Assembly: GCA_000004985.1 (NCBI GenBank)
Contig: GG738852.1
Source of the DNA: Naegleria gruberi
Taxonomy: Eukaryota
Direction: 5' to 3' (one strand)
DNA length: 64,000 nucleotides
Made by a program: the position numbers and the translations under genes. Below the pieces are notes generated by a model. It worked only from the letters and a program-made list of their open reading frames with translations. It was not told the DNA's origin and did no database searches. Below, one piece after another: positions 30,634 through 64,000 of the stretch. Every line of letters begins with the position of its first letter. The first letter of the stretch is position 1.

Positions 30634-30704
30634 TCGGGCGTGGTATAGTGGTAGCATTCCAGACTGTCACTCTGGCGACCCGGGTTCAATTCCCGGCGTT
30701 CGAG
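30634..30704 (+). tRNA. tRNA-Asp (anticodon GTC).
   Basis: Cloverleaf folded by hand. Acceptor TCGGGCG/CGTTCGA with two G-U pairs. D-arm GTATAGTGGTAGCAT. Anticodon stem CCAGA/TCTGG with loop CTGTCAC. T-arm CCGGG-TTCAATT-CCCGG. Discriminator G. Confidence 0.85.
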
Positions 30705-35600: not shown

Positions 35601-37825
35601 ATGTCAGGAGATAATGAAGGGTTTATTGAAACCCTACTAATCAATCTCTTCACAATACCAATAACAACAATAGCATCATCATTCCCTCATCACCATCACC
35701 AACAATATTCAACTAATCATGTCATGACCATAATGGCAAACGAAACCTTTCCAACAATACTCAATAATAGTCAAACAAGTAATTCTACTTCCAATCGAAC
35801 GGATTGTTCTCCCATTCTCTTCAACCTAGGCAAATGGAGTACTGAGAAGGAACCAAAGTTTGAATTTGGTTTATGTCCAGATTCAATCATCACTCCAATA
35901 TTTTCATCAATTTTCCTTGCTCTCTTTCTTGGAATTTGTTTAATTTCACTGATGGGAATGATATGGAAGAGAAGGAATGGATTTATACATGCAAGAAATC
36001 CAATTTACATGTTCATGACTATTGTGGCTGCATTGATATTCATTGGAGGTAATGGATTGCGATTCATGATTGGACGAAAGCTATTTCCCTGTGCAATTTA
36101 TACTGTACTGTTTTTTGTATTGCCTCCACTTGTGAGTTTACCAACAATTTTGAGATGTTTGAGATTGTTTTTCATGTGAGTTTTAATTGTTTAATATTAT
36201 TAATATTATTTAATTAATATTTTGGTTTATTAATGTTTTTTTCTGGAATGTTTATTGTTACTGGATGGATTAATAATAGGTATAAATTGAATTTACAAAA
36301 AACTAAATTATTCGAATTGAAGAATATGGGAAAATCGAATCAAGCTATTCAAACAGGAGAAAATGTAAATTCACAAATTCAATCATTTGAAATGAATGTA
36401 ACAAATAGTCAAAATAATTCATCATTAGGAGTTGTGGATTCGAATAGTAATAGCTTAACTATTTCATCAAGTGAAAAACAAATTTATGGAAATGAGGATT
36501 TAATTCACAGAAGGTCAAACATTACCGAAATTATCAATAATACCAATCCTAGTACTACCATTGATCCAGAGAAGGCCATTGAACTCAATGCTAAGAGTAT
36601 TGATATCAAGACAGCTGGAGTTTCACCAATTTTGAAATCTGTCGATAATCCAAACGGAAATGTGGATTTTTCAACATCTCATTATTCGAATGGATCTTCA
36701 ACAATGGAAAACATGTCTCAACAAGATCTGGTTGATTCCTCTCCAAGACTTTTCAAAAACAATGACAATTTATTTGATGTAGATGTTACAGAAACAGATG
36801 ATAGTGATTCGTATTCAGATATTGACAGTCGATCCACTTGGGCATTTAGAGATTTATCTGATTTACAATCAGAAGTTAGAAGGTTTCAAATATTTACCTT
36901 CATGTCAAGTTACAAGTTTGTTCTCATTCTCTATTCTACATTTGTCATTTTCCAAATAGCTTTGTGGTTAATTTTGGGAGGTGTTGAGGAAGCTCTCTTC
37001 TCCAACTCACTAAGTCATACTGGTGAGAGAATCTTTCTTTTGGAAGGTGGAATGCTTGTTTTTGATAGAGGATGTTCAATGAGCACCAAGATGGTCCTCA
37101 TCATTGCAGGAGAATCAGTTATTTACATTATTTTTGAAATTGTAGCACTGATATTATGTATCAGATCAGACAGAGACACATGGAGTGTGAAAAAAGAGGC
37201 CATTCTCATTATCATCTTTCAAGTTATAGCAATAATTGCATTTGTAGTGACTGGTTTAATTGATGAAATTGTTACATTGACAGATTACTTTATTCCATAT
37301 GGGTATTCACTCATGACCTTTTCACTTGTTGAAGTTTTCACTACTGTGCTATTGCCAGTTGTGTATGCAATAGTGAGTGAGTATAGGAATTTAAGGAGAA
37401 TGGATACAGAGTTTGACTCTGAGTTGGAACAAGTTCTACGTAATAGAAAATCATTCAATAAGATGTTGGACTTTGCACGTCGAAGTTATGCACCTGAGAG
37501 TGTGTTGTGCTATCGAGATATTCAGAGATTTAAAAAGTTGAGAGCTAACAATCGAAGAAAGATGGCTCATCACATTGTAAATTCATATCTAACGAGTGGA
37601 TCTCCTTTGGAATTGAATATTGACAATATTATAATAAGAAAAAAGGAATTTTCTGATAGGGTTTCTAATACCAATGAAAAGCTTCCAAGAGACATGTTCA
37701 ATCAGATCCAAGACCATTGTTTGGTTGATATGAGAGACATTTTTGATCGTCTGAGATCTTCTGATAAGGAGATTTACCAAATGATACAAGATTGGAGGAT
37801 GAAGCAATCAAAATTAATTAACTGA
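35601..37825 (+). CDS. Seven-transmembrane receptor with a C-terminal RGS domain (paralog A). Two exons.
   Basis: Exon 1 is 35601-36175. The intron is 36176-36279 (gtgagt...aatag). Exon 2 is 36280-37825. The junction ...LRLFFM|YKLNLQKTKLF matches paralogs B and C (FMYKINL..K.KLF). N-terminal Cys-containing ectodomain, 7 TM helices with a long acidic loop after TM3, then an RGS domain (LDFARRSYAPESVLCYRDIQRFKK...SPLELNID). Confidence 0.75.
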
Positions 37826-40481: not shown

Positions 40482-42421
40482 TTACTGTGTAGAATTTGTT
40501 GATTGAACTGAATTGTTCAAAGATTTGAGTTCTTTGACAATGTCACCAATTTGCTTGTTGGAGCTCTTCAATCTTTCGAATAGATCTGTCATGTCGTTAA
40601 GGCAATGATCTTGGATGAGTGCAAACAAATTGTGTGAAATATTTGGATTTTCCTCAATTAACTTTTCAATTTCACTCCTCCTTTCTTCAATTTTGCTAAT
40701 ATTCAATTCTAGTGGAGCACCAGCAGTAAGGTAAGCCTTCAAAATGTGAGTGGCTGCCTTCTTTCTGTTTGCCTTTCTTGCCTTTTTAAATCTCTGTATA
40801 TCTCTCCAACACAAAACGCTCTCAGTGCAATAACTTCTTCTTGCAAAGTCAAGTAAGATTTGATAGGTCTTTTTGTTTTTCAAAACCTTCTCAATTCCTG
40901 TTTCTTTCACAGCTTGTTTCCTTTCAGTGTCATTGTTGGATTGTGAGAGCTTGCTCTTTCTGTCGCTGATAAAGGCATACATGGCAGGCATTCCAACACA
41001 CATAATAATTTCAATCAGCTCATAAATCCATAACGCCAATCCAGTTGGAACCAAATAGTCCAATAACTTTTCTGTAATATCCAACATGCCAACAACTATA
41101 AAAATGATGGCAGCTCCAACCTGAACAATGATTAGAAGGAGTGTTTCTCTCTTAATTCCCCATGTATCTCTATCAGCCATAACTGCCAAGATGAGGAATA
41201 CCAATTCTAAGAAGATGTAGACCAGTGCATGGACACCAACAATCAAGACTGTTGTAGTAGTGAGACCACAACCTCTTTCAAAGACAAACAGACCACCATC
41301 AAAGAGGAATAATCTCTTTTTGTTTGGATCTGTACTTGCATTATAAGTCACCTCCTCAACAATTCCTAAAACTACCCAAATTATAACTCCAACAAGGAAT
41401 GCAATGGCATAGGTGGAAAGGATAAACTTTTTGCTGATGAAAAAGTTCAGAATGGCCAATTGTTTAACTTGTTTTTTAACATCACTAACTTCCTTAAATT
41501 CACTCATATTCCAAGTTGAAACGTCAGCTTGTGATTCAGAATCTCCATCAGTTGTTGAATCATCCCAATTTGGAGGATCGAGTCCAATATCCTCATAATT
41601 GTTAGGATCAAAGTTGTTAACCACCTTGTGAATTTGTTCTTGCCTTCCTGCCATGTCTTCCAATCCAAATATTTTAGAGTCTGATTTTTTCAATTCCACC
41701 TCAGTTTGTTCCTTTAGCTGGTTAATTGGTACAATGCCATTCGGGTTTGTCACTGATGTAGCACCAACAGTGCTGTCTTTTGCTGAAACATCAAAAAGTT
41801 TCATCTTTAAAAGATTAATCTTGTACATGAGATAAATTCTCAACATTCTGAAAACTGTCGGTAGCATTACAGCTGGAGGTAATGTAAAGAAACTAAAAGT
41901 AATTATACCACAAGGGAATATCTTTCGTCCGATGATTATTCTCAATGTTAATCCAACAACAAATACGAAACCAGCACATAAAGTCATGTACAATGATGTG
42001 GGATCTCTTGCCATAATATGTCCACTCTTCCTCTTAAATATCACTCCTGTTGTTGTCAAAAAGAAATGTCAACAAACAATTTAAAACAATAAATTATTGA
42101 AACTTTACCAATTGCACTGAAAATAACACTTATTATATAAACAATCACAAAGGTCAACACCAAAGCAAAACTAATATAAGTATCAGGACACAGCCCATAA
42201 TCAATTGTGCCATTATTTCCCTCCCGAGACCATCCTCCCAAGTTGAATAATATAGGATCACATGCAAAAGCACTACTATTAGTTGAATTCAATAATCCAA
42301 TGAATGGACTTGTATCATTTAAAATTCCTCTTCCAATCATCCACCCATTGATATTCTCCCGAAGGAACACCTCCAGAGCATCTTCCATTAATCCAAAGTG
42401 TGTGGGTTGACTTGCTGGCAT
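40482..42421 (-). CDS. Seven-transmembrane receptor with a C-terminal RGS domain (paralog B). Two exons.
   Basis: Exon 1 is 42421-42109. The intron is 42108-42047 (gtaaag...aacag, 62 nt). Exon 2 is 42046-40482. The junction ...SAIG|VIFKRKSGHIMARDP matches the paralogs (WKRKSSHVEARSP / WKRRNGFIHARNP). RGS motif LDFARRSYCTESVLCWRDIQRFKKARK. Confidence 0.75.
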
Positions 42422-43634: not shown

Positions 43635-45635
43635 TCAAACTTGATCTGAAAATGTTACCGTTGGATTCATCAACGTTAACGTAGATGTGGAATTTACAAG
43701 ATTGGAACTTGTTGCGGAGGTATCTAACTTGCTTTCAGTATAGGTAGATGCTTTTTTGTAATTCTTTACAAAATCTGAGATTACATTATTAGAATTTTTC
43801 AATCTATCAAACAAATCTGCCATGTCATTCAAACAATGGTCCTGCACAGCTTTGAAAATATCAGTTGGAATTTTGCCATTGGTTGATTCTATTTGCTTCA
43901 CTTGTTCAAGAATTTCGGCACTTTTGAAGGTAATCTTTGGCATGTTAAGTTCTAATGGAGCACCAACGGTCATGTAAGCATTGACAATGTGGTTTACTGC
44001 CTTTTTCCTCTGACTTCTCTTTGCCTTCTTGAATCTTTGAATATCTCTCCAACACAAGACACTCTCAGTGCAGTAACTTCTTCTAGCAAATTCGAGTACA
44101 ATTTTGAACATTTTACGATTTTTGAGAACCTTCTCTAAGCCACTTTCAGATTCGGTATTTTTGGCTAGTTTCTTGTCAAATATTATGGAACGAATGACTG
44201 GAATAGTGACACACACAATTACTTCAATGAACATGTACCCCCACAAAATGAAACCATATGGGAAATAGGCATCTGTAACAGATGCGATGAAATCAATATT
44301 AGCAGCAACTACAAACAAAATAGCACTAGTTAATTGAATAACAATCAAAATCATAGTCTCCCTCTTAATTCCCCAAGAGTCTCTGTCTGCTGTAAAGGCA
44401 AATATTAAAAATACCAATTCCAAGAGAATGAACAAGATTGATTCTACAGAAATCATAATGGTAGTTGTAGTATTCATACCACAACCGTGTGAAAATAGAA
44501 GAATACCACCCTCATTCAAGAATATTCTCTTCTTGTTTGGATCTGTACTTGTATTGTAAATTGCTTCCTCAGCAACACCAACAATAAGCCAAATAATTAC
44601 ACCAAATAAGAAGGAAAGAATGTAAATCACAGTAATGAATTTGACACTGATTAGGAAATTGAAAATTTTCAACTTTCTCAATTCTTTTTGCACATCTGCC
44701 AAATCCTTATATTCACTCATATTCCAAGTTGAAACGTCTGCTTGTGAATCATTATCAGTATCAAAATTACTTTCATCATCATCATCTGTAACAGTATTTG
44801 AAGTAGTTCCATTAATGGAATCAAGTTGAGGTTCATATTCATGATTTTTTGCAATTACTCTAGAGAGACGTTCTTGTCTTTTCACTATACCATCCTCTTG
44901 TCCAAAGAATTGTTGTTGTTGGGTTCCACTTTGAGTTTCAATTGTAAAATTATCAATTGCTTGTTTCAATTCAATATTACCTGAAGTGTTATCACCTCCT
45001 GTATTTGTAGTACTGGTATTTTGTAAATTAGTCGGTGATTCGAATAGTTTAGTTTTCTGTAAATTAATCTTGTACATGAAATATGCTCTCATTAATCTGA
45101 AAATAGTAGGTAATGTCACAGCTGCAGGAAATGTGAAAAAGCAAATAGTTAACAAACCACAAGGGAATAACCTTCTCGAGATGACAATTCTCAAAGTCAT
45201 TCCCACAATGAAAAAGAAAGCAGCACATAAAGTAAAGGCGAGATAGATTGGACTTCTCGCTTCGACGTGACTGGACTTTCTCTTCCAGAAAACACCTACA
45301 CCTGTCAATAATACAGTAATTATATATACAATCATAAATGCTAGACATGTGGCAAAGGCAAAATAGGTATCATTGCAGAGACCGTATTGAGATGTAACGT
45401 TCATTTCACGAATCCATGGCGTACCGATGAGAGAGGAATCACAAACTTTAGTATTATTGGTGGTGAAATTTAATGTTGAATTATCTGAAAGCATGGAGAA
45501 TGGTTCCATTAATGAATGTTGAAAATATGAATTAATCAGGAGAGCTGCGATATTGTTGGATGGTGTGATGGCATATTGTTCAAAGAAAGGAGAGAGTTGC
45601 TGACTGTTGGCAACTTGAAATTGTTGCAGAGACAT
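43635..45635 (-). CDS. Seven-transmembrane receptor with a C-terminal RGS domain (paralog C). Single exon.
   Basis: 666-aa continuous ORF with ATG verified. Conserved ectodomain Cys pattern (C...YGLCNDT), 7 TM helices, a D/E/S-rich loop, and an RGS motif LEFARRSYCTESVLCWRDIQRFKKAKR. Confidence 0.75.
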   Translation of the reverse strand: MSLQQFQVANSQQLSPFFEQYAITPSNNIAALLINSYFQHSLMEPFSMLSDNSTLNFTTNNTKVCDSSLIGTPWIREMNVTSQYGLCNDTYFAFATCLAFMIVYIITVLLTGVGVFWKRKSSHVEARSPIYLAFTLCAAFFFIVGMTLRIVISRRLFPCGLLTICFFTFPAAVTLPTIFRLMRAYFMYKINLQKTKLFESPTNLQNTSTTNTGGDNTSGNIELKQAIDNFTIETQSGTQQQQFFGQEDGIVKRQERLSRVIAKNHEYEPQLDSINGTTSNTVTDDDDESNFDTDNDSQADVSTWNMSEYKDLADVQKELRKLKIFNFLISVKFITVIYILSFLFGVIIWLIVGVAEEAIYNTSTDPNKKRIFLNEGGILLFSHGCGMNTTTTIMISVESILFILLELVFLIFAFTADRDSWGIKRETMILIVIQLTSAILFVVAANIDFIASVTDAYFPYGFILWGYMFIEVIVCVTIPVIRSIIFDKKLAKNTESESGLEKVLKNRKMFKIVLEFARRSYCTESVLCWRDIQRFKKAKRSQRKKAVNHIVNAYMTVGAPLELNMPKITFKSAEILEQVKQIESTNGKIPTDIFKAVQDHCLNDMADLFDRLKNSNNVISDFVKNYKKASTYTESKLDTSATSSNLVNSTSTLTLMNPTVTFSDQV

Positions 45636-48671: not shown

Positions 48672-49859
48672 ATGGATCTCTACATTCCTTCTGATTTAAA
48701 CAATTGTGATGATGATTTTTGTGACGAAATGTTGCCAGTTGAAGAAAAATTAGAAAGAAGAATGGATGAATTGACAATTTTAGATGGTGATGCATTTGTC
48801 TCAAACACAACAAGCAATTCTCAAACAACAGGTGCTTGGATTCGTGCTAAACATTTGGAAGAAGAAGGTTATGATCAAGAATTGGTTGACCACAGTGAAA
48901 ATTTTGTCGATTTGGTTATTGTAATGGATTGTACTGGATCAATGTCTGGTGAAATTGAAGTTGCCAAACGAACTGTAACTACTATCATCTCAACACTTCA
49001 TGAAAAGTTTCAATCTGATTTGAGATTTTCAGCTGTCAGTTATAGAGATCACACTGATGATTATGCAGTTAAGGAATTCCCATTTACAAAGGATTTGAAT
49101 AAGGCAAAGGGTTATATCAATACAATGTCAGCTCAAGGTGGAGGTGATCATCCTGAAGCTTTGGCATCAGCTCTCTATGTCATTAATGAAATGCCATTTA
49201 ATAAGAAGGGAAAGAAGATTGTTGTTTGGGTTGCTGATGCTCCTCCACATGGAATGAAAACATCATCTGATAGCTATCCAGAAGGATGTAAGGATCAACA
49301 AGGAAATGTCATTGATTGGATCAAATTGGGATCTGCTCTCCAGGAGAAGAATGTTGTCTTTTATGGAATTTTGTGTGAAAGAGCAAAGGATGATCAACAA
49401 TTGACCTTGTTTATGGATTATTTGACAACTAAAACTGATGGTAAATGTTTACTCTTAACAGATGCTAATAAGATACCAAATTTGGTGATTAATGGTTGTG
49501 TGGAAGATGAAGATATGGACAATCTTGTTGCAAAGAAAATTAAAGAATTGGGAGAAGAGAAGGTCAATAATTTGGGAATGGATGATTTACTTAAACTCAT
49601 TCACAATGAAACATCCTCTGAAAAGGTTGCCCAAGTTAAAACCTTTGAAATTGCCTCAACCAGAACTAAGAATTTGATGAATTATTCAACCTTATCTGAT
49701 ATGCAATGTGATGATTATGTTTCAGCTCAGAATGTCATGACTAGAAATGATGATTGTGAGGCAGAGAGCGATTCTTTTGATGATTATGGAGGTGTTTACT
49801 ACAAAGCACCAACTATGGAAAAGGTGGCAAAGGCCTATTCCAGAAATTTGAGAAAGTAA
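48672..49859 (+). CDS. von Willebrand factor A (vWA) domain protein, similar to the N-terminal domain of vWA-kinase-type proteins.
   Basis: VIVMDCTGSMSGEIEVAKRTV...SAVSYRDH..., a MIDAS-like DxSxS, then APPHG. Confidence 0.6.
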   Translation: MDLYIPSDLNNCDDDFCDEMLPVEEKLERRMDELTILDGDAFVSNTTSNSQTTGAWIRAKHLEEEGYDQELVDHSENFVDLVIVMDCTGSMSGEIEVAKRTVTTIISTLHEKFQSDLRFSAVSYRDHTDDYAVKEFPFTKDLNKAKGYINTMSAQGGGDHPEALASALYVINEMPFNKKGKKIVVWVADAPPHGMKTSSDSYPEGCKDQQGNVIDWIKLGSALQEKNVVFYGILCERAKDDQQLTLFMDYLTTKTDGKCLLLTDANKIPNLVINGCVEDEDMDNLVAKKIKELGEEKVNNLGMDDLLKLIHNETSSEKVAQVKTFEIASTRTKNLMNYSTLSDMQCDDYVSAQNVMTRNDDCEAESDSFDDYGGVYYKAPTMEKVAKAYSRNLRK

Positions 49860-49960: not shown

Positions 49961-51079
49961 TCATTTATTGGAATTTCTGAAAAAAGTAAATGTATCATTG
50001 AAAAAACGCAAAATCGATGGGATGATACTCCATCTTTGTTTTGTTATGTTATTTTCATCATTATTCTCAATTTTTGGAATGGAAATTATTTTGGAATTTT
50101 CAACTTGTTTCAATATGAAATGAATATTTTCATATTGAGATTGAATTTGTTCCGAAGCAAATAAAATATTCATTTCATTTTCTTCCATTGCAATTTGTAC
50201 AATTTCCACATCATTTCTCAATTCCAAATTTAGAAATTGTAATAAATGTCCTTGATGTTTCAATACAAGTTTGGCCAATTCTCTGTCTTGCTTCCATTCT
50301 TGAAAATTCATATAGAATTCTTTGAATTCATTACTATTCTTCAATTCATTTCCATACTTTTCCTGAATATTTGTAAAATACTTTACAAGATTAATTTTCA
50401 TTGTAATCTCGGGCTTACTGTATTTCAAAATATTGTAAACAGTGCACATATATTGAGGATATTTTTCTATAAGATCGAGTACTCGCTCATCCAATATATC
50501 TCCCTTGATATACCTAAATGGATCCTCTCCTTTTTCAATGCAAATTTCCAATAGTTCAATATAATCTACAATATAATTCTTATCAATAAAATACAATTCA
50601 CAATAATTCCTTTCCACACAATATTTGATAAATTCCCAATTTGATTTTAGTTCACTTCCCACATACTGATAAATGCATCCACTATTATCATAAGTTTGTT
50701 CTAATAATTGTTTAATAAATTGAAAATTATTTAACAATTCCTCATCCGCACCATCAATATTGTAAATTCTATATTTGGATGTATTCATTACTACTTGTGG
50801 ATCTTTTCTAAATTCACTATTTGAAGGAAAATATCTCATTGGAATTCCTTCACTTTTTTCAATCATTTTCAATATGAAGTTTCGTTCAAGTTTCAATGAA
50901 GTTTGCTCTAATGCACGGAAATATCTTCTACTGAGTGCCAATTCTACAACATCAATATCATCCTTCAAACCGTTAGAGGCATGATTAAAATTAAAGTTAA
51001 ATTGTTTGATAAAATATAGAACTAGTCTCTTATTATTTTTTAGAGTTTCAGAGGCGTATTTTAAACCTTCTGGAAACAT
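49961..51079 (-). CDS. DUF4116-like repeat protein (paralog).
   Basis: ATG at 51077-51079. Repeats such as NGLKDDIDVVELALS and SELKSNWEFIKYCV. Its frame stays open upstream of the ATG into the neighbouring ORF. Confidence 0.5.
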   Translation of the reverse strand: MFPEGLKYASETLKNNKRLVLYFIKQFNFNFNHASNGLKDDIDVVELALSRRYFRALEQTSLKLERNFILKMIEKSEGIPMRYFPSNSEFRKDPQVVMNTSKYRIYNIDGADEELLNNFQFIKQLLEQTYDNSGCIYQYVGSELKSNWEFIKYCVERNYCELYFIDKNYIVDYIELLEICIEKGEDPFRYIKGDILDERVLDLIEKYPQYMCTVYNILKYSKPEITMKINLVKYFTNIQEKYGNELKNSNEFKEFYMNFQEWKQDRELAKLVLKHQGHLLQFLNLELRNDVEIVQIAMEENEMNILFASEQIQSQYENIHFILKQVENSKIISIPKIENNDENNITKQRWSIIPSILRFFNDTFTFFRNSNK

Positions 51080-51081
51080 TT

Positions 51082-52248
51082 TTAATAGGTCAATATCATT
51101 TTCAATATATTTCCTATCAAAGAATTCAAGTGTTGAAACCCATTTAATCCTAATTTAATATATTGAATTAGTTCAATATTAAACTGGTCGTCTTGTTCAA
51201 ATAGAGGATTAATATAGGCATAGTTGAATGCGTTACATTTACAAAACCACAAACTCATTTCTCTGTCATTGTAAAACTCATTGTAAACATAATTAAATGT
51301 TAAATTAGTCTCTTTTGCGCATTCTTTAATAAATTCTCTATTGAGCTTAATTTCATTATAGACGTGATCTATATTCTCTGGATTACATTTGATTGCAAAT
51401 TGTTGAATATCAATACTGGTGTTATAGGGTAATATTAATGAAAGTGAGTTTCCACGTTGTAACATTGATTTTTGAAAGTTGATATTCTTTTTAATATCTT
51501 CTCCAAAATATTCGAATGGTAGTGATTCAACTTTTGGTTGTAATTTAAATATTGATTCATCATTTCTTAATTCATATGGTAAATATGGAAATATTCTATA
51601 ATTACTTTTCAAGACAATTTTGCAAAATTCCAAATTAGATTTTAAATTTTCAGATAAATATCTAAAGGATGTTTCTGAATTTTTAATTGAATTCAGTGCT
51701 ATACCCTTGTTATTCTTAACGTCTTCATTTGTAACGTATTTCATCAATGATCCATTTATAGAAAGTGCCATATTACACAATTCAAAGTCAGATCTCAATT
51801 CTTGTGATGCAAATTCAAATGCTTGAACATTACTTTGCAATGCTATTTTAACTAATTCTCTATCATTTTGATAATTTGGAAAATATTTCAATAAATTTCC
51901 ATTTCTAGAAAGTATAATTTTCATAATATTGCTGTTACTGGTCAATAGTTTGGATTGATATTTAATTAATTGATAAGTTAACATATTAATATTGTAATCA
52001 CTAGAATTTTTCAAACTTGTTTCAATTAACTCTTCATCATTTAAAATTTTATCATATTCACTCTCCGGAAATTTTTCATAATTGATCAATAATTCATCTC
52101 CATCTTTCTTTACAATTTCCAATCTTTCACTTTGAAGTGTATTTAAAGTGAATTTACTTGATGAAAAACGAGCCAATGATGATGAACTGAAGAGCTGTGG
52201 TTTTATCAATTTGTGTGTTAAAACACCAAGCTTGACAAGTTGTTTCAT
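51082..52248 (-). CDS. DUF4116-like repeat protein (paralog). Possibly the 5' half of one gene with 49961-51079.
   Basis: ATG at 52246-52248. Repeats LSRNGNLLKYFPNYQNDRELVKIALQSNVQAFEFASQELRSDFELCNMALSINGSLMKYV.... Its stop directly abuts the next ATG in a different frame. Confidence 0.5.
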   Translation of the reverse strand: MKQLVKLGVLTHKLIKPQLFSSSSLARFSSSKFTLNTLQSERLEIVKKDGDELLINYEKFPESEYDKILNDEELIETSLKNSSDYNINMLTYQLIKYQSKLLTSNSNIMKIILSRNGNLLKYFPNYQNDRELVKIALQSNVQAFEFASQELRSDFELCNMALSINGSLMKYVTNEDVKNNKGIALNSIKNSETSFRYLSENLKSNLEFCKIVLKSNYRIFPYLPYELRNDESIFKLQPKVESLPFEYFGEDIKKNINFQKSMLQRGNSLSLILPYNTSIDIQQFAIKCNPENIDHVYNEIKLNREFIKECAKETNLTFNYVYNEFYNDREMSLWFCKCNAFNYAYINPLFEQDDQFNIELIQYIKLGLNGFQHLNSLIGNILKMILTY

Positions 52249-52544
52249 TTTTTTTTGATTGGTAAAGCTTTGTTCATATCAAGTTCCGATCACAAGCCTG
52301 TCTCCAACCTTTAGAAATGCTGTCCAGAAAAACTATCAATGACTGCAAATAGCATTATGACAAACTCTCTGGTTGACTTATTATCAGCTTTTGGAGATTA
52401 GGTTGTTATTGATATAATTCATTCTTAAGTGGAGACGTGTAGATCTCTGGAGGTTGATATAAATTCGTCGATCCGCTGGACCAGAAGAAAATTTGCAAGT
52501 TGAGTGTCACCCGTATAAAATTTTTGATGGTCAGTTTGTGAAAA

Positions 52545-52680
52545 CTCAATATCAAGCTGTCTTGTCCTTGTATGCTTCTAGTTGAACTACTGGTGTTGTT
52601 TTGGACTCTGGTGATGGTGCCTGCCACTGTTCCAATTTATGAAGGTTATGCTTTGCCACACTCTTCATCCAAACATTCAT
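52545..52680 (+). pseudogene. Actin pseudogene fragment (about residues 135-175 of actin).
   Basis: caagctgtcttgtccttgtatgcttct (QAVLSLYAS), an in-frame TGA where actin has GR, then TTGVVLDSGDG. A 2-nt shortening relative to actin precedes ...[10 protein letters not shown]. There is no flanking actin sequence. Confidence 0.55.
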
Positions 52681-53679
52681 CATCATCCTCAAAATGACCA
52701 TTATCAACAGTTATGGATGGATCAACAACAGTAAGATCTCCACACTTTATCATCTTCATCAACATTGATTGCAGCATTGTTAAATACAATTCCGACACTT
52801 ATTGGTAGTTGCCAGCTGGCAGGTTGGGACAAGTGGCCTTAATAGATTTAAGAGTGTTGTCAGGTCCCGCCAATTCCCTTTGTAAAATCAAAGGCTATTT
52901 TTACCTTAAAAAAATGGCATACTTCTTTGTATTCGAGGAGGTATCGTACAAGGAAATCATTGCGTAACAGGTTGCTCAACTTTAGTATTGGTAAATCGAT
53001 GTAGTAGTTTTGAACTAATATGAATTGGATGAATCGACTAGTACGTATTTATTTAAGGCTGTGATATTCCGATCATCATCATCATTATTATAGTTGATCA
53101 ACAGGACGATTCATCATCATCAACAACAAAAACAAGAACAGCTTCCGAATCAGATCAAACCACAGAGGGTAGGAAGTTCCAACTCTGCTATCAAAGGTCC
53201 TGGTGTTTTTTGCTTGCTAACTTTGATGACACGTTTGTACCCTCATTGTTGCACAAATACCACTCTCAATTGCTTAAATGTTAGTATCATGATTAATTAA
53301 TTATTAAGACTTGTTCTCTTTTCAGAAATACATCTCTTCAATAATAACACACTGTAAGTAGTAAATGAGAATATCATCATGACTAATATATCAGAATTTA
53401 AACGATCTATTTTAATTGGTAAAGTGTAGATTTATTTCAATCTGAATGAAGGTTTTCTTGAACAATTTCCTAATAACAATAATATAACAATAACAGTAAA
53501 GTGACCATGATAAAGGAGTGGAACTCTTTTGTAAGTATAATATCACTCAACATTTAATAATCAAAGAGGTCGCAGGAGTTTAAGTATTTCAGATTATGTA
53601 ACAATGTAATGAATTGATTCATTTAAGGTAGGTTTATCATTATCAAGAAAATTGGGTTTGGTTAGGATTCAGGTTTGTG

Positions 53680-53860
53680 GGTTTGGATCCCATGTCAACC
53701 CCTATTTATTAAGCTTTTCTCCTTAAATACATTAACAATATATATCATAAATGATGTCAAAAGATGGTGATTGTAATGGGGCACAATATTCGGCTGATGT
53801 GAAATTGTTAAATATTTATATATATCAAGTTATGATGGTGGCTAGTGGCAATAAAATCAC
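53680..53860. repeat. Subtelomeric repeat element Y, copy 1.
   Basis: ggatcccatgtcaacccctatttattaagcttttctccttaaatacattaacaatatata... is about 85-90% identical to 55632-55830. Confidence 0.8.
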
Positions 53861-53974
53861 TTGATCAAAATTATTTTTGCCGGTTGATCAAACCGAAAAA
53901 CGCGCGGAAAAGTTAAAAATAGATTCAAGTTGATGTGAAAATGGCTCAGAATCGAAAGGATTAACAAAGCTTAC

Positions 53975-54025
53975 TACTATATTGGAAGTGAATGTGCCAT
54001 TTGGCACTCACTTCCATCAACTTTA
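53975..54025. repeat. Imperfect palindrome ggaagtgaatGTGCCAtttGGCACtcacttcc (junction element, copy 1).
   Basis: Inverted repeat GTGCCA/TGGCAC flanked by GGAAGTG / CACTTCC. Same motif as at 55890-55965. Confidence 0.6.
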
Positions 54026-54175
54026 TCATAGAAATCACTCTTGAAACATGAATTGTACTATAATGTGTGAGTAACATACTGGTGTTGGAATTGATCAATA
54101 ACTCTTTGAAATGATTGAGATGGAATGTAAACTATATTCTAAGGTATATTGGTTGACTGTAAGATACAGAGCCAT

Positions 54176-55274
54176 NNNNNNNNNNNNNNNNNNNNNNNNN
54201 NNNNNNNNNNNNNNNNNNNNNNNNNNNNNNNNNNNNNNNNNNNNNNNNNNNNNNNNNNNNNNNNNNNNNNNNNNNNNNNNNNNNNNNNNNNNNNNNNNNN
54301 NNNNNNNNNNNNNNNNNNNNNNNNNNNNNNNNNNNNNNNNNNNNNNNNNNNNNNNNNNNNNNNNNNNNNNNNNNNNNNNNNNNNNNNNNNNNNNNNNNNN
54401 NNNNNNNNNNNNNNNNNNNNNNNNNNNNNNNNNNNNNNNNNNNNNNNNNNNNNNNNNNNNNNNNNNNNNNNNNNNNNNNNNNNNNNNNNNNNNNNNNNNN
54501 NNNNNNNNNNNNNNNNNNNNNNNNNNNNNNNNNNNNNNNNNNNNNNNNNNNNNNNNNNNNNNNNNNNNNNNNNNNNNNNNNNNNNNNNNNNNNNNNNNNN
54601 NNNNNNNNNNNNNNNNNNNNNNNNNNNNNNNNNNNNNNNNNNNNNNNNNNNNNNNNNNNNNNNNNNNNNNNNNNNNNNNNNNNNNNNNNNNNNNNNNNNN
54701 NNNNNNNNNNNNNNNNNNNNNNNNNNNNNNNNNNNNNNNNNNNNNNNNNNNNNNNNNNNNNNNNNNNNNNNNNNNNNNNNNNNNNNNNNNNNNNNNNNNN
54801 NNNNNNNNNNNNNNNNNNNNNNNNNNNNNNNNNNNNNNNNNNNNNNNNNNNNNNNNNNNNNNNNNNNNNNNNNNNNNNNNNNNNNNNNNNNNNNNNNNNN
54901 NNNNNNNNNNNNNNNNNNNNNNNNNNNNNNNNNNNNNNNNNNNNNNNNNNNNNNNNNNNNNNNNNNNNNNNNNNNNNNNNNNNNNNNNNNNNNNNNNNNN
55001 NNNNNNNNNNNNNNNNNNNNNNNNNNNNNNNNNNNNNNNNNNNNNNNNNNNNNNNNNNNNNNNNNNNNNNNNNNNNNNNNNNNNNNNNNNNNNNNNNNNN
55101 NNNNNNNNNNNNNNNNNNNNNNNNNNNNNNNNNNNNNNNNNNNNNNNNNNNNNNNNNNNNNNNNNNNNNNNNNNNNNNNNNNNNNNNNNNNNNNNNNNNN
55201 NNNNNNNNNNNNNNNNNNNNNNNNNNNNNNNNNNNNNNNNNNNNNNNNNNNNNNNNNNNNNNNNNNNNNNNNNN
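54176..55274. other. Assembly gap (1099 N).
   Basis: Run of n. Confidence 1.
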
Positions 55275-55620
55275 CTGACATTATTTACAAAGTTAATATT
55301 TTATAAATTGAAAAACTAAATATACTACGTTGTTCTACTCATCATTTCCAATCGAATGATATAAAATTTAATGATATTTGAATAAGTTTATAATTTTGGG
55401 CTAGGGTTTGAAGGTTGGGTTTAGAATAATTCTATTTTTGGGTTTGGAAACGTGTTGTTTTGATTTGTTTCTTCTGTGGCTCCATGGTCTTTATGATCTG
55501 ATATAGGGTTATTAAGCGCCGTTTGGGTATTTTGTTGGTTTTTTTAGTAAAGTTTTAAAAAAAGTATATAGTTCTTATCTAGTTATCGAGTTGTGGTGTA
55601 AATGTGTTGTTTTCAAGCTA
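55275..55620. repeat. Subtelomeric repeat element X, copy 1.
   Basis: ctgacattatttacaaagttaatattttataaattgaaaaactaaatatac... is about 88% identical over about 340 bp to 63205-63545. Confidence 0.85.
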
Positions 55621-55631
55621 TTCGAAAGTAG

Positions 55632-55830
55632 GTTTTGGATCCCATGTCAACCCCTATTTATTAAGCTTTTCTCCTTAAATACATTAACAATATATATTAT
55701 AAATTATATCAAAAGATGGTGATTGGAATGGGGAACAATATACGGCTGATGTGAAATTAATAAATATCAATATTTGAGAAGTTCTGATGGAATGCCATAG
55801 TAATTTATCTCTAGGTAAATAAAGATACCG
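55632..55830. repeat. Subtelomeric repeat element Y, copy 2.
   Basis: See copy 1 at 53680-53860. Confidence 0.8.
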
Positions 55831-55889
55831 CTAATTTTAAAAATAGAATTTTAAAAATAGATAGAGATCTGGCTTTATAATGGTGGAAG

Positions 55890-55965
55890 TGGAAGTGCCA
55901 CAGGCACTCACTTCCATCAAGTTGCGATCTATTGTGTTTGATAATAATGATGGAAGTGGAAGTGC
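55890..55965. repeat. Palindromic junction element, copy 2 (ggaagtgGAAGTGCCacagGCACTCACTTCC ... ggaagtggaagtgcca), directly abutting the internal telomeric array.
   Basis: Same GGAAGTG/GTGCC..GGCAC/CACTTCC arrangement as 53975-54025. GGAAGTG occurs again at the array boundary. Confidence 0.6.
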
Positions 55966-55968
55966 CAG

Positions 55969-56461
55969 GTTGGGTTTGGTTGGGTTTGGGTTTGGGTTTG
56001 GGTTTGGGTTTGGGTTTGGGTTTGGGTTTGGGTTTGGGTTTGGGTTTGGGTTTGGGTTTGGGTTTGGGTTTGGGTTTGGGTTTGGGTTTGGGTTTGGGTT
56101 TGGGTTTGGGTTTGGGTTTGGGTTTGGGTTTGGGTTTGGGTTTGGGTTTGGGTTTGGGTTTGGGTTTGGGTTTGGGTTTGGGTTTGGGTTTGGGTTTGGG
56201 TTTGGGTTTGGGTTTGGGTTTGGGTTTGGGTTTGGGTTTGGGTTTGGGTTTGGGTTTGGGTTTGGGTTTGGGTTTGGGTTTGGGTTTGGGTTTGGGTTTG
56301 GGTTTGGGTTTGGGTTTGGGTTTGGGTTTGGGTTTGGGTTTGGGTTTGGGTTTGGGTTTGGGTTTGGGTTTGGGTTTGGGTTTGGGTTTGGGTTTGGGTT
56401 TGGGTTTGGGTTTGGGTTTGGGTTTGGGTTTGGGTTCCGGGTTTGGGTTTGGGTTTGGGTT
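55969..56461 (+). repeat. Internal telomere-like array (GGGTTT)n, about 80 units, G-rich on the + strand.
   Basis: Perfect hexamer repeats. One variant unit (gggttccgggttt) near 56430. Truncated by a 50-N gap. Confidence 0.95.
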
Positions 56462-56511
56462 NNNNNNNNNNNNNNNNNNNNNNNNNNNNNNNNNNNNNNN
56501 NNNNNNNNNNN
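56462..56511. other. Assembly gap (50 N).
   Basis: Run of n. Confidence 1.
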
Positions 56512-57542
56512 ATGTTGATATCATGATGTTATAATCTATATTTCCATTTGGGAAATGTTGTAATGTCAATGTTTAATTGAAATATTGCCATCATACCAAT
56601 AATTGATTTTATACTATAAAAATGATATTATACACTATAATTGATATATATATGAATATATGATTGTAATATTTCAATTTTAACATTTATTAATGACGTG
56701 GGTTGTTCACTAAGGTAGTAACTTTGTCATATGATAACTATCTAAGATGATATTAAAATCATTCCAAAATTGATTCGATGAGAGTATTTGATGATTATAA
56801 CATGGTAATATTGAATTGGTGTTGATTAGTACCATTCATGACATGTAAGAATGTTACCTTTTTGTCAATGGGGTTTGGTTAGGATTCAGAGTTGATTTAT
56901 TTGGGTTATTTAAGAGATTACTTAGTGAAGATTCATATCATTGATTATATTTCTTATCATCTATTAATGATGTTAATTTGATGGTTTCATTTCTTATATT
57001 GATAGATATTTAAAGGTCAGGTCAGTACTAACTTTTGAATTATGGACTTTGAGAATTCAAATGTTTGGGACGTGAATCTACTCATTAGATTGAATAGGTA
57101 TTGCTAATAAAGGAACATTTCATTGATTTATTGATTATAACGGTCAAATTGAGTTGAATGGAAGTGAATCACATGTTGATTCATAGTGGTTGGGTAGTTT
57201 CGCCACGAAGTGGTGCAACTACCAACCTTTGTAGATTGAATCAGGTTGATTTGCATGCAATCTGAAATATGTAGCATGATTCAAGTGATTATTCACCAAT
57301 TCAATGATCAATATTCAATAATCGGTTTGATTTCAATCAATAGCTTGATCATCAAGCTTTGAATTAATATTCCAGTAATTAACGGCAGTCTATTTTTAAA
57401 TTTAATCAAAGACCATATATAGTATCTTGACTTTTATGATCTGGAAACTATCTAGATGTGTTCTATATTGAATAATCTATTTGAAAATGAGATGAATTAA
57501 CTCTTCTATTGAGTTTTATTGGTATTGTATGCTATTACGATT

Positions 57543-60500
57543 NNNNNNNNNNNNNNNNNNNNNNNNNNNNNNNNNNNNNNNNNNNNNNNNNNNNNNNNNN
57601 NNNNNNNNNNNNNNNNNNNNNNNNNNNNNNNNNNNNNNNNNNNNNNNNNNNNNNNNNNNNNNNNNNNNNNNNNNNNNNNNNNNNNNNNNNNNNNNNNNNN
57701 NNNNNNNNNNNNNNNNNNNNNNNNNNNNNNNNNNNNNNNNNNNNNNNNNNNNNNNNNNNNNNNNNNNNNNNNNNNNNNNNNNNNNNNNNNNNNNNNNNNN
57801 NNNNNNNNNNNNNNNNNNNNNNNNNNNNNNNNNNNNNNNNNNNNNNNNNNNNNNNNNNNNNNNNNNNNNNNNNNNNNNNNNNNNNNNNNNNNNNNNNNNN
57901 NNNNNNNNNNNNNNNNNNNNNNNNNNNNNNNNNNNNNNNNNNNNNNNNNNNNNNNNNNNNNNNNNNNNNNNNNNNNNNNNNNNNNNNNNNNNNNNNNNNN
58001 NNNNNNNNNNNNNNNNNNNNNNNNNNNNNNNNNNNNNNNNNNNNNNNNNNNNNNNNNNNNNNNNNNNNNNNNNNNNNNNNNNNNNNNNNNNNNNNNNNNN
58101 NNNNNNNNNNNNNNNNNNNNNNNNNNNNNNNNNNNNNNNNNNNNNNNNNNNNNNNNNNNNNNNNNNNNNNNNNNNNNNNNNNNNNNNNNNNNNNNNNNNN
58201 NNNNNNNNNNNNNNNNNNNNNNNNNNNNNNNNNNNNNNNNNNNNNNNNNNNNNNNNNNNNNNNNNNNNNNNNNNNNNNNNNNNNNNNNNNNNNNNNNNNN
58301 NNNNNNNNNNNNNNNNNNNNNNNNNNNNNNNNNNNNNNNNNNNNNNNNNNNNNNNNNNNNNNNNNNNNNNNNNNNNNNNNNNNNNNNNNNNNNNNNNNNN
58401 NNNNNNNNNNNNNNNNNNNNNNNNNNNNNNNNNNNNNNNNNNNNNNNNNNNNNNNNNNNNNNNNNNNNNNNNNNNNNNNNNNNNNNNNNNNNNNNNNNNN
58501 NNNNNNNNNNNNNNNNNNNNNNNNNNNNNNNNNNNNNNNNNNNNNNNNNNNNNNNNNNNNNNNNNNNNNNNNNNNNNNNNNNNNNNNNNNNNNNNNNNNN
58601 NNNNNNNNNNNNNNNNNNNNNNNNNNNNNNNNNNNNNNNNNNNNNNNNNNNNNNNNNNNNNNNNNNNNNNNNNNNNNNNNNNNNNNNNNNNNNNNNNNNN
58701 NNNNNNNNNNNNNNNNNNNNNNNNNNNNNNNNNNNNNNNNNNNNNNNNNNNNNNNNNNNNNNNNNNNNNNNNNNNNNNNNNNNNNNNNNNNNNNNNNNNN
58801 NNNNNNNNNNNNNNNNNNNNNNNNNNNNNNNNNNNNNNNNNNNNNNNNNNNNNNNNNNNNNNNNNNNNNNNNNNNNNNNNNNNNNNNNNNNNNNNNNNNN
58901 NNNNNNNNNNNNNNNNNNNNNNNNNNNNNNNNNNNNNNNNNNNNNNNNNNNNNNNNNNNNNNNNNNNNNNNNNNNNNNNNNNNNNNNNNNNNNNNNNNNN
59001 NNNNNNNNNNNNNNNNNNNNNNNNNNNNNNNNNNNNNNNNNNNNNNNNNNNNNNNNNNNNNNNNNNNNNNNNNNNNNNNNNNNNNNNNNNNNNNNNNNNN
59101 NNNNNNNNNNNNNNNNNNNNNNNNNNNNNNNNNNNNNNNNNNNNNNNNNNNNNNNNNNNNNNNNNNNNNNNNNNNNNNNNNNNNNNNNNNNNNNNNNNNN
59201 NNNNNNNNNNNNNNNNNNNNNNNNNNNNNNNNNNNNNNNNNNNNNNNNNNNNNNNNNNNNNNNNNNNNNNNNNNNNNNNNNNNNNNNNNNNNNNNNNNNN
59301 NNNNNNNNNNNNNNNNNNNNNNNNNNNNNNNNNNNNNNNNNNNNNNNNNNNNNNNNNNNNNNNNNNNNNNNNNNNNNNNNNNNNNNNNNNNNNNNNNNNN
59401 NNNNNNNNNNNNNNNNNNNNNNNNNNNNNNNNNNNNNNNNNNNNNNNNNNNNNNNNNNNNNNNNNNNNNNNNNNNNNNNNNNNNNNNNNNNNNNNNNNNN
59501 NNNNNNNNNNNNNNNNNNNNNNNNNNNNNNNNNNNNNNNNNNNNNNNNNNNNNNNNNNNNNNNNNNNNNNNNNNNNNNNNNNNNNNNNNNNNNNNNNNNN
59601 NNNNNNNNNNNNNNNNNNNNNNNNNNNNNNNNNNNNNNNNNNNNNNNNNNNNNNNNNNNNNNNNNNNNNNNNNNNNNNNNNNNNNNNNNNNNNNNNNNNN
59701 NNNNNNNNNNNNNNNNNNNNNNNNNNNNNNNNNNNNNNNNNNNNNNNNNNNNNNNNNNNNNNNNNNNNNNNNNNNNNNNNNNNNNNNNNNNNNNNNNNNN
59801 NNNNNNNNNNNNNNNNNNNNNNNNNNNNNNNNNNNNNNNNNNNNNNNNNNNNNNNNNNNNNNNNNNNNNNNNNNNNNNNNNNNNNNNNNNNNNNNNNNNN
59901 NNNNNNNNNNNNNNNNNNNNNNNNNNNNNNNNNNNNNNNNNNNNNNNNNNNNNNNNNNNNNNNNNNNNNNNNNNNNNNNNNNNNNNNNNNNNNNNNNNNN
60001 NNNNNNNNNNNNNNNNNNNNNNNNNNNNNNNNNNNNNNNNNNNNNNNNNNNNNNNNNNNNNNNNNNNNNNNNNNNNNNNNNNNNNNNNNNNNNNNNNNNN
60101 NNNNNNNNNNNNNNNNNNNNNNNNNNNNNNNNNNNNNNNNNNNNNNNNNNNNNNNNNNNNNNNNNNNNNNNNNNNNNNNNNNNNNNNNNNNNNNNNNNNN
60201 NNNNNNNNNNNNNNNNNNNNNNNNNNNNNNNNNNNNNNNNNNNNNNNNNNNNNNNNNNNNNNNNNNNNNNNNNNNNNNNNNNNNNNNNNNNNNNNNNNNN
60301 NNNNNNNNNNNNNNNNNNNNNNNNNNNNNNNNNNNNNNNNNNNNNNNNNNNNNNNNNNNNNNNNNNNNNNNNNNNNNNNNNNNNNNNNNNNNNNNNNNNN
60401 NNNNNNNNNNNNNNNNNNNNNNNNNNNNNNNNNNNNNNNNNNNNNNNNNNNNNNNNNNNNNNNNNNNNNNNNNNNNNNNNNNNNNNNNNNNNNNNNNNNN

Positions 60501-62998
60501 NNNNNNNNNNNNNNNNNNNNNNNNNNNNNNNNNNNNNNNNNNNNNNNNNNNNNNNNNNNNNNNNNNNNNNNNNNNNNNNNNNNNNNNNNNNNNNNNNNNN
60601 NNNNNNNNNNNNNNNNNNNNNNNNNNNNNNNNNNNNNNNNNNNNNNNNNNNNNNNNNNNNNNNNNNNNNNNNNNNNNNNNNNNNNNNNNNNNNNNNNNNN
60701 NNNNNNNNNNNNNNNNNNNNNNNNNNNNNNNNNNNNNNNNNNNNNNNNNNNNNNNNNNNNNNNNNNNNNNNNNNNNNNNNNNNNNNNNNNNNNNNNNNNN
60801 NNNNNNNNNNNNNNNNNNNNNNNNNNNNNNNNNNNNNNNNNNNNNNNNNNNNNNNNNNNNNNNNNNNNNNNNNNNNNNNNNNNNNNNNNNNNNNNNNNNN
60901 NNNNNNNNNNNNNNNNNNNNNNNNNNNNNNNNNNNNNNNNNNNNNNNNNNNNNNNNNNNNNNNNNNNNNNNNNNNNNNNNNNNNNNNNNNNNNNNNNNNN
61001 NNNNNNNNNNNNNNNNNNNNNNNNNNNNNNNNNNNNNNNNNNNNNNNNNNNNNNNNNNNNNNNNNNNNNNNNNNNNNNNNNNNNNNNNNNNNNNNNNNNN
61101 NNNNNNNNNNNNNNNNNNNNNNNNNNNNNNNNNNNNNNNNNNNNNNNNNNNNNNNNNNNNNNNNNNNNNNNNNNNNNNNNNNNNNNNNNNNNNNNNNNNN
61201 NNNNNNNNNNNNNNNNNNNNNNNNNNNNNNNNNNNNNNNNNNNNNNNNNNNNNNNNNNNNNNNNNNNNNNNNNNNNNNNNNNNNNNNNNNNNNNNNNNNN
61301 NNNNNNNNNNNNNNNNNNNNNNNNNNNNNNNNNNNNNNNNNNNNNNNNNNNNNNNNNNNNNNNNNNNNNNNNNNNNNNNNNNNNNNNNNNNNNNNNNNNN
61401 NNNNNNNNNNNNNNNNNNNNNNNNNNNNNNNNNNNNNNNNNNNNNNNNNNNNNNNNNNNNNNNNNNNNNNNNNNNNNNNNNNNNNNNNNNNNNNNNNNNN
61501 NNNNNNNNNNNNNNNNNNNNNNNNNNNNNNNNNNNNNNNNNNNNNNNNNNNNNNNNNNNNNNNNNNNNNNNNNNNNNNNNNNNNNNNNNNNNNNNNNNNN
61601 NNNNNNNNNNNNNNNNNNNNNNNNNNNNNNNNNNNNNNNNNNNNNNNNNNNNNNNNNNNNNNNNNNNNNNNNNNNNNNNNNNNNNNNNNNNNNNNNNNNN
61701 NNNNNNNNNNNNNNNNNNNNNNNNNNNNNNNNNNNNNNNNNNNNNNNNNNNNNNNNNNNNNNNNNNNNNNNNNNNNNNNNNNNNNNNNNNNNNNNNNNNN
61801 NNNNNNNNNNNNNNNNNNNNNNNNNNNNNNNNNNNNNNNNNNNNNNNNNNNNNNNNNNNNNNNNNNNNNNNNNNNNNNNNNNNNNNNNNNNNNNNNNNNN
61901 NNNNNNNNNNNNNNNNNNNNNNNNNNNNNNNNNNNNNNNNNNNNNNNNNNNNNNNNNNNNNNNNNNNNNNNNNNNNNNNNNNNNNNNNNNNNNNNNNNNN
62001 NNNNNNNNNNNNNNNNNNNNNNNNNNNNNNNNNNNNNNNNNNNNNNNNNNNNNNNNNNNNNNNNNNNNNNNNNNNNNNNNNNNNNNNNNNNNNNNNNNNN
62101 NNNNNNNNNNNNNNNNNNNNNNNNNNNNNNNNNNNNNNNNNNNNNNNNNNNNNNNNNNNNNNNNNNNNNNNNNNNNNNNNNNNNNNNNNNNNNNNNNNNN
62201 NNNNNNNNNNNNNNNNNNNNNNNNNNNNNNNNNNNNNNNNNNNNNNNNNNNNNNNNNNNNNNNNNNNNNNNNNNNNNNNNNNNNNNNNNNNNNNNNNNNN
62301 NNNNNNNNNNNNNNNNNNNNNNNNNNNNNNNNNNNNNNNNNNNNNNNNNNNNNNNNNNNNNNNNNNNNNNNNNNNNNNNNNNNNNNNNNNNNNNNNNNNN
62401 NNNNNNNNNNNNNNNNNNNNNNNNNNNNNNNNNNNNNNNNNNNNNNNNNNNNNNNNNNNNNNNNNNNNNNNNNNNNNNNNNNNNNNNNNNNNNNNNNNNN
62501 NNNNNNNNNNNNNNNNNNNNNNNNNNNNNNNNNNNNNNNNNNNNNNNNNNNNNNNNNNNNNNNNNNNNNNNNNNNNNNNNNNNNNNNNNNNNNNNNNNNN
62601 NNNNNNNNNNNNNNNNNNNNNNNNNNNNNNNNNNNNNNNNNNNNNNNNNNNNNNNNNNNNNNNNNNNNNNNNNNNNNNNNNNNNNNNNNNNNNNNNNNNN
62701 NNNNNNNNNNNNNNNNNNNNNNNNNNNNNNNNNNNNNNNNNNNNNNNNNNNNNNNNNNNNNNNNNNNNNNNNNNNNNNNNNNNNNNNNNNNNNNNNNNNN
62801 NNNNNNNNNNNNNNNNNNNNNNNNNNNNNNNNNNNNNNNNNNNNNNNNNNNNNNNNNNNNNNNNNNNNNNNNNNNNNNNNNNNNNNNNNNNNNNNNNNNN
62901 NNNNNNNNNNNNNNNNNNNNNNNNNNNNNNNNNNNNNNNNNNNNNNNNNNNNNNNNNNNNNNNNNNNNNNNNNNNNNNNNNNNNNNNNNNNNNNNNNN
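57543..62998. other. Assembly gap (5456 N).
   Basis: Run of n. Confidence 1.
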
Positions 62999-63204
62999 GA
63001 TGAGAAACTCAAAAGTTATAGTTGACCTATTGTACCTCACAACTTCCCTTTTCACTTGATACTTTTATACCTACAGACATGAACTTTTGAAATTTTATAT
63101 GAAAGTGATTATGAATGTTGTTAACGATGATATAGACTATATAATCTCATTAAAGGATTTTGAAATTATCATTCTTCCTATAGTTGTATATTTGAAATTT
63201 TAAT

Positions 63205-63545
63205 CTGATATTATTTACAAAGTTAATATTTTATAAATTGAAAAACTAAATATACCACGTTGTTCTACTCATCATTTCCTATCGAATGATATAAAATTTA
63301 ATGATATTTGAATAAGTTTATAATTTTGGGCTAGGGTTTGAACGTTGGGTTTAGAAGAATTGGGTTTGGATTAGAGTTGTTTTGATTTGTTACTTCGGTG
63401 GCACCATGGTCTTTATGATCTAATATAGAGTCTTTAAGTGAATCTTGGGCTTTTGGAAAGGTTTTTCAGTAAAGTTTTAAAAAAAGTATATACTTTCTAT
63501 CTAGATATCGAGATTTGGTGTATTTGTTGTTTGCATTGTTATTTG
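63205..63545. repeat. Subtelomeric repeat element X, copy 2.
   Basis: See 55275-55620. Confidence 0.85.
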
Positions 63546-63683
63546 GAAAGTGGTAAAGATTTCGATATTCTTTGTTGGGTTTGGTTATCGTTTCGTACTC
63601 ATTGGATCTTCATTATTATTGAAATACATAATCAATGATATACATCATTAAATAGGTTACAATCTCAGCTATCCAGTGGGCTA

Positions 63684-64000
63684 GGTTGGGTTTGGGTTTG
63701 GGTTTGGGTTTGGGTTTGGGTTTGGGTTTGGGTTTGGGTTTGGGTTTGGGTTTGGGTTTGGGTTTGGGTTTGGGTTTGGGTTTGGGTTTGGGTTTGGGTT
63801 TGGGTTTGGGTTTGGGTTTGGGTTTGGGTTTGGGTTTGGGTTTGGGTTTGGGTTTGGGTTTGGGTTTGGGTTTGGGTTTGGGTTTGGGTTTGGGTTTGGG
63901 TTTGGGTTTGGGTTTGGGTTTGGGTTTGGGTTTGGGTTTGGGTTTGGGTTTGGGTTTGGGTTTGGGTTTGGGTTTGGGTTGGGTTTGGGTTTGGGTTTGC
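63684..64000 (+). repeat. Terminal telomere-like array (GGGTTT)n running to the end of the window, G-strand 5'->3' toward the end.
   Basis: About 50 perfect hexamer units. One 5-nt variant (gggtt) near 63975. Confidence 0.95.

Follow-up and report, generated by a model that had tools for sequence, protein, structure and literature searches.

The question raised by this locus is whether an imperfect palindrome, lying where subtelomeric DNA meets telomeric repeats, defines that boundary or was carried there as part of a larger repeat. The window, by which we mean the whole 64,000-nt stretch that was analysed, is the terminal part of a 938,756-bp scaffold of Naegleria gruberi NEG-M, and proteins of that strain (EFC48232, EFC48233, EFC48236 and others) were exactly matched by six of the ten ORF products tested and likewise by three of eight additional ones. 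Across its gene-dense length the window has a G+C content of ~33% and encodes RasGEF, RGS, VWA, actin and PRP38 domains, a typical eukaryotic set, together with a sole tRNA (tRNA-Asp, at 30634). Not far from the chromosome end, three genes with an RGS domain are found within 10 kb (36233-37825, 40482-42059 and 43635-45635), which suggests a local tandem expansion of this family. The three ORFs closest to the end (48672-49859, 49961-51079 and 51082-52248), one VWA and two DUF4116, are 372-395 aa long with clean Pfam matches. They had no exact gene-position match, in a look-up that also came back empty for a window protein known in NCBI, and a homology search with the last of them, a DUF4116 ORF, gave distant matches only and no N. 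gruberi protein; these ORFs may be unannotated or modelled differently in the reference annotation.

Gene-dense, chromosome-specific unique sequence ends at ~52250, and distal to it lie two repeat modules, which we call P and S, followed by (GGGTTT)n. The distal sequence opens with an ORF-free stretch of ~1.4 kb containing a frameshifted piece of actin (52513-52660, 67% identical to 31275-31424 inside an actin ORF), in one frame of which the peptide VPIYEGYALPH can be read; this is a subtelomeric pseudogene piece. There is no N-free ORF of at least 80 aa in the subtelomeric part of the window, and protein searches with the translated ORFs of the junction and of modules S and P returned no candidates. 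Runs of N interrupt the region at 54176-55274, 56462-56511 (50 N) and 57543-62998 (~5.4 kb). The contig at 55275-56461 carries module S, the second copy of module P and ~82 telomere repeats, that at 56512-57542 (~1 kb) lies between the 50-N run and the 5.4-kb gap, and on the terminal contig (62999-64000) module S is separated from a second telomere array by 135 bp of unrelated sequence. The first array is thus internal to the scaffold, with a second telomere-bearing contig distal to it, and because further subtelomeric contigs follow an internal telomere array, the arrangement is most simply explained if several repeated ends or haplotypes were scaffolded together via common subtelomeric repeats. 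The region should accordingly be read with caution, as a part of a draft scaffold that apparently unites several chromosome ends.

The palindrome itself is a real feature of this DNA. As the sequence-only reading had it, there are two copies: the pattern GGAAGTG-N1-4-GTGCC-N2-4-GGCACTCACTTCC matches exactly twice in the window, at 53984-54015 and 55885-55915 on the + strand, where 100 dinucleotide shuffles gave an expectation of 0, and it is absent from the gene-dense upstream 52 kb. Each full palindrome folds into a 13-bp DNA hairpin whose bulge is 2-3 nt and whose loop is 3-4 nt long, and single-stranded DNA folding gave -12.7 kcal/mol (z = -5.9) for copy 1 and -14.3 kcal/mol (z = -5.1) for copy 2 relative to shuffles, placing the two at ranks 1 and 2 of 14,301 sliding 48-nt windows that cover all non-N sequence. 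Together, the zero expectation in shuffles and the two leading hairpin ranks indicate that the palindrome is not a chance feature. At rank 3 stands a hairpin in the other subtelomeric contig (57188-57228, GGTTGGGTAGTTTCGCCACGAAGTGGTGCAACTACCAACC, -12.2 kcal/mol) whose sequence is unrelated to the palindrome. All of the top three thus fall within ~4.3 kb of subtelomeric DNA, the best hairpin elsewhere reaching only -10.4 kcal/mol, and this clustering hints that subtelomeric hairpins may not be accidental. Two other identities for the palindrome were considered and set aside. A structured RNA or tRNA had neither an Rfam match (nothing at E<=1 over 52000-64000) nor a compensatory change to its credit, and an origin of AAGTGCCAC in cloning-vector DNA was rejected, given that the match, presumably to pUC sequence, is 9 nt long and that copy 1 lies in unique context.

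Table 1. Positions of palindrome copies, telomere junctions and repeat modules in the 64,000-nt window.
Feature	Position	Strand	Sequence and remarks
Palindrome copy 1	53984..54015	+	GGAAGTGA-AT-GTGCCA TT TGGCAC-TCACTTCC; internal, without adjoining telomere
Palindrome copy 2, extended arms	55881..55919	+	TGGTGGAAGTG-GAA-GTGCC ACA GGCAC-TCACTTCCATCA; core pattern 55885-55915
Truncated third palindrome copy, left arm only	55944..55967	+	ATAATGATGGAAGTGGAAGTGCCA; direct repeat, 23/24 of 55877-55900
Telomere array 1	55968..56461 (~494 bp)	+	Irregular start GGTTGGGTTTGGTT..., 75 perfect GGGTTT units from 55982
Second junction and telomere array 2	63683..64000	+	Starts AGGTTGGGTTT; without palindrome or module P upstream
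Junction 11-mer	55967..55977; 63683..63693	+	AGGTTGGGTTT; identical at both telomere junctions
Degenerate telomere-like island	53652..53686	+	TTGGGTTTGGTTAGGATTCAGGTTTGTGGGTTTGG; border of chromosome-specific DNA and module P copy 1
Module P copy 1, well-conserved proximal block	53679..53838	+	90% identity to 55631-55790
Module P copy 2, proximal block	55631..55790	+	90% identity to 53679-53838
Module S	55275..55629	+	85% identity to 63205-63551; telomere-like islands inside
Module S, second copy	63205..63551	+	On the terminal contig (62999-64000)

How the palindrome relates to the telomere can be read from the junctions. The repeat TTTGGG has been put forward from genome data as the candidate telomere repeat of N. 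gruberi (PMC3622300), and in the literature we found this proposal only, with no description of Naegleria subtelomeres. Array 1 is oriented with its G-strand running 5' to 3' towards the end. The second palindrome had been placed within a few bases of the first GGGTTT unit; this turned out not to be so, since 52 nt separate the end of full copy 2 (55915) from the start of telomere-like sequence (55968), and what abuts the telomere is a half copy. This half copy follows the full one at a period of 67 nt, has no right arm and differs from it by one base. The repetition of GGAAGTG at the junction, also noted from the sequence, was found at 55952 and 55958. Immediately past GTGCCA the half copy reads GGTTGGGTTTGGTTGGGTTT... 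where the full copy has CAGGCACTCACTTCC, so that the palindrome is cut off at the position of its loop, where the telomere tract begins.

Comparison with the other junction, which makes two telomere junctions on one scaffold, yielded a different result. Neither the palindrome nor module P was found before the junction at 63683, where the preceding sequence is unrelated, and the dyad is likewise absent from the subtelomeric contigs at 56512-57542 and 62999-63685. The earlier description of a dyad conserved at this boundary is therefore not borne out: one of the two junctions has a palindrome beside it, and copy 1 is internal. Absence from other telomere junctions had been named as the observation that would count against the idea, and this holds at 63683 and fails beside array 1. 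A universal junction element or a programmed-breakage signal would occupy a fixed position at every junction, which the palindrome does not. The sole sequence common to both junctions is instead the 11-mer AGGTTGGGTTT, a TT-for-TTT variant of the first repeat, which has three matches in the window against 0.03 expected, the third being inside module S at 55412-55422. This common start may have come about by recombination between ends, or telomerase may have a preferred first cycle.

The two full palindromes prove to belong to larger repeats. Module P is ~300-350 bp long, copy 1 spanning 53679 to ~54023, and its copies share, besides the proximal block, a distal island (53969-54023 versus 55872-55923, 78% identity by blastn and MAFFT) that is set apart from that block by ~100 bp of unalignable sequence. 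Homology between the copies stops 8 nt past the right arm of the palindrome, so that the distal limit of what was duplicated is marked by the palindrome. Judged from these alignments, the two full palindromes are not independent occurrences but homologous segments of module P in its two copies. Downstream of the copy 1 palindrome come at least 160 bp of non-telomeric sequence up to the N gap, with ~150 bp of other sequence between the end of module P copy 1 and that gap. Module S is common to both telomere-bearing contigs; module P with its palindrome occurs twice, only one of these copies being beside a telomere. As expected of subtelomeric repeats, the borders and interiors of the modules carry degenerate telomere-like islands (53652-53686, 55396-55450, 55620-55632, 56868-56905, 63326-63375 and 63546-63560; for example TTGGGTTTGGTTAGGATTCAGG and GGGCTAGGGTTTGAAGGTTGGGTTTAG), which could be relics of former chromosome ends. 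The contig at 56512-57542 was considered as a further homologue of module P and rejected, with only a telomere-like island aligning (66%), and the common GGAAGTGAAT at 57160 in that contig was not counted as homology.

On balance, we lean towards an account in which the palindrome is part of a low-copy subtelomeric duplicon, module P, and in which this chromosome end was truncated within the tandem iteration of that repeat and then capped with telomere. The best reading of the palindrome is that of a passenger or breakpoint feature, not a universal definer of the boundary between subtelomere and telomere. The end is a mosaic of the kind typical for subtelomeres, in which genes extend to ~52250 and give way to a telomere-like island and to module P copy 1, ending in the palindrome; ~1.6 kb that includes module S comes next, then module P copy 2 and the telomere. 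Module P copy 2 ends in 1.4 tandem iterations of a 67-nt unit containing the palindrome, the second iteration being cut in the palindrome loop, and the chromosome end was probably truncated inside this repeat. Capping may have come about through extension of the G-rich ...GTGCCAGG 3' end by telomerase or, alternatively, through microhomology-mediated recombination with another end that has the same proximal AGGTTGGGTTT repeats. Modules with telomere-like remnants, a common module, a pseudogene fragment and a capped, truncated copy are the make-up of subtelomeres in many eukaryotes. The suggestion that the palindrome is a recombination or healing point at which telomeric repeats are seeded fits this one end, where the telomere starts in the loop of the truncated copy, and it stands there as a single event.

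That start in a loop may also mean that the palindrome had a causal role, and because the cut falls inside the loop, such a role is a live rival to a passenger in a duplicon. The palindrome would be a fragile site, its hairpin forming in single-stranded DNA on the lagging-strand template or at a resected end, being cut at or near the loop by an Mre11-type nuclease and the resulting end being healed by telomerase, so that the site of telomere seeding would have been set by the palindrome. In yeast, inverted repeats break at hairpins, with Mre11-Sae2 processing, and de novo telomere addition is one outcome. Both full copies in N. gruberi are short-spacer inverted repeats able to form a stable hairpin and are the most stable of the window, with z-scores of about -5 to -6, although their 13-bp bulged stems are short for cruciform extrusion. 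The telomere starts 0-3 nt from the loop position, GTGCCA running into GGTTGGG where the full copy reads GTGCCA-CA-GGCAC, but this is one event (n=1), and a random cut in the 67-nt unit would hit or adjoin the loop in roughly 1 of 10 cases. Copy 1 and full copy 2 are, moreover, intact, and the second junction arose without a palindrome. We consider a fragile site possible but unlikely.

A protein-binding role draws on the conservation of the arms. Between the full copies, 25 of 26 stem positions are identical, and of the five differences all but one lie in the bulge or loop; by base pair, 12 of 13 are invariant and one has a one-sided change (A·T to G·T). No compensatory change and no covariation was found between the two sequences, and selection on structure is thus unsupported by compensatory substitutions. 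With the neighbouring block diverged by 10%, the probability of 0-1 changes in 26 sites is roughly 0.25, so this degree of identity is not unusual. The arms are nonetheless better conserved than the unalignable ~100 bp upstream, a contrast that could stem from constraint and that, like the subtelomeric clustering of the top hairpins, weighs against a mere passenger. The pattern is compatible alike with a hairpin, a dyad protein site with variable spacer, a recent duplication or quasi-palindrome correction, which two sequences do not distinguish.

On this evidence we regard it as doubtful that the dyad, or the ~19-nt half-site within it (five copies, alternately oriented), is bound by a dimeric protein associated with the subtelomere or telomere, in which role it would by analogy act like the insulator or silencing sites in the subtelomeres of other organisms. 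Apart from the identity of the stems, such a putative site would account for the palindrome forming a conserved island beyond the ~100 bp of unalignable sequence and for the concentration of GGAAGTG/CACTTCC 7-mers, eight of the 16 in the window falling in the 4.3 kb of subtelomeric sequence. All copies, however, have a single duplicated module as their source, so that their conservation perhaps reflects recent ancestry; the dyad is missing from the second junction and from two subtelomeric contigs, as described above; and no candidate protein is known. Nor did the motif appear in any collection searched: the exact palindrome pattern had 0 matches in JGI metagenomes, IMG/VR and GTDB genomes (and the module S pattern 0 in GTDB genomes), and of the 120 loci that a (GGGTTT)6 scan of metagenomes returned, 24 with the array at the contig end, none had the palindrome motif on its contig. 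These loci had no DNA similarity to the subtelomere of the window, and the 24 array-ending junctions were mutually different, with unremarkable junction hairpins. The palindrome does not generally accompany TTTGGG telomeres, and because the metagenome contigs are unrelated to N. gruberi they are uninformative on N. gruberi ends. One metagenome project (JAESGV01... contigs; L005, L028, L029, L040, L054, L078 and L080) contributed many low-GC contigs whose ends are (GGGTTT)n arrays with junctions that differ from contig to contig, which suggests an uncharacterised organism with TTTGGG telomeres that is DNA-unrelated to the N. gruberi subtelomere.

It seems improbable that the half-site, TGRTGGAAGTG-N3-GTGCC (~19 nt), in its alternating inverted copies serves as a cis-acting end element at many ends, whether as an array bound by a dimeric subtelomere protein or as a preferred site of breakage and healing that sets where telomeres are seeded; if it did, Heterolobosea would thereby have its first defined functional element adjacent to a telomere.

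The two remaining accounts rank below the other readings as less likely. Under the first, the palindrome would be a repair scar, left when foldback priming at an old broken end produced a short inverted duplication that was later capped and then duplicated with the module. Foldback at yeast double-strand breaks is reported to yield short (5-34 bp) templated inverted duplications (PMC11724301). The palindrome does lie exactly at the distal homology limit of the module copies, where the ancestral end would be expected, and the start of each module at a telomere-like remnant suggests that capping took place repeatedly. Yet the arms are not simple mutual copies, since the left arm bears a 2-3-nt bulge and a GGAAGTG-GAAGTG tandem and the right arm has neither, and the third copy repeats the left arm directly and not in inverted orientation; two copies, moreover, cannot separate such a scar from other histories. 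We therefore think this origin quite improbable. Very improbable is an assembly artefact, with the junction consensus, and above all the half copy, arising from collapsed or mis-joined reads in a Sanger draft, for although the region is heavily gapped and its internal 494-bp telomere array, with other contigs and a second telomere beyond it, makes it clear that repeated ends were scaffolded together, the palindrome is found in two contigs, each copy with differences of its own, the half copy is one base off the full copy with both in one contig, and mis-scaffolding between contigs leaves the sequence within a contig unchanged.

This locus offers a first sketch of a Naegleria subtelomere, with island-bounded modules, a hairpin repeat at one end and a common AGGTTGGGTTT start to both telomere tracts. 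On present evidence the palindrome looks like an ordinary component of subtelomeric repeat DNA. Should the palindrome be present at many ends, it would provide a handle on end protection and healing in a deep-branching eukaryote.

Several known systems can be set beside this arrangement. In Tetrahymena, the 15-bp chromosome breakage sequence (Cbs) directs programmed breakage with addition of telomeres, and the N. gruberi motif resembles it as a short specific sequence near a telomere addition site. To our knowledge, however, the Cbs is non-palindromic, invariant, present at every breakage site and eliminated in the process, whereas the N. gruberi motif is palindromic and missing at the second junction; we also know of no programmed fragmentation in Naegleria. 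Closer in descent are the junction elements of Discoba, namely the '189-bp junction' of Trypanosoma cruzi and the conserved telomere-associated sequence blocks of Leishmania, which so far as we know stand at essentially all ends of their genomes. Like these, the palindrome-bearing repeat is a short non-coding element just proximal to hexamer repeats, in a related supergroup. No sequence similarity to them is expected, and by contrast with them the palindrome is found at one of two junctions, with only the 11-mer AGGTTGGGTTT at both. The breaks that yeast hairpins undergo through Mre11-Sae2 share with this locus an inverted repeat that is nearly perfect and has a spacer of 2-4 nt, and a telomere that starts from the dyad centre of a truncated copy, although in N. 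gruberi the stems are 13 bp with a bulge and there is one natural event in place of an experimental series.

Subtelomeric duplicons bounded by degenerate interstitial telomere repeats are familiar from the X/Y' elements of yeast and from human subtelomeric blocks. Those of N. gruberi have no sequence relationship to either, were seen in two or three copies and have no defined ARS or protein sites. In organisation they are similar: the N. gruberi modules lie between chromosome-specific genes and the terminal array, P and S are common to ends or repeated on one end with telomere-like islands between them, and a pseudogene fragment, here of actin, lies nearby.
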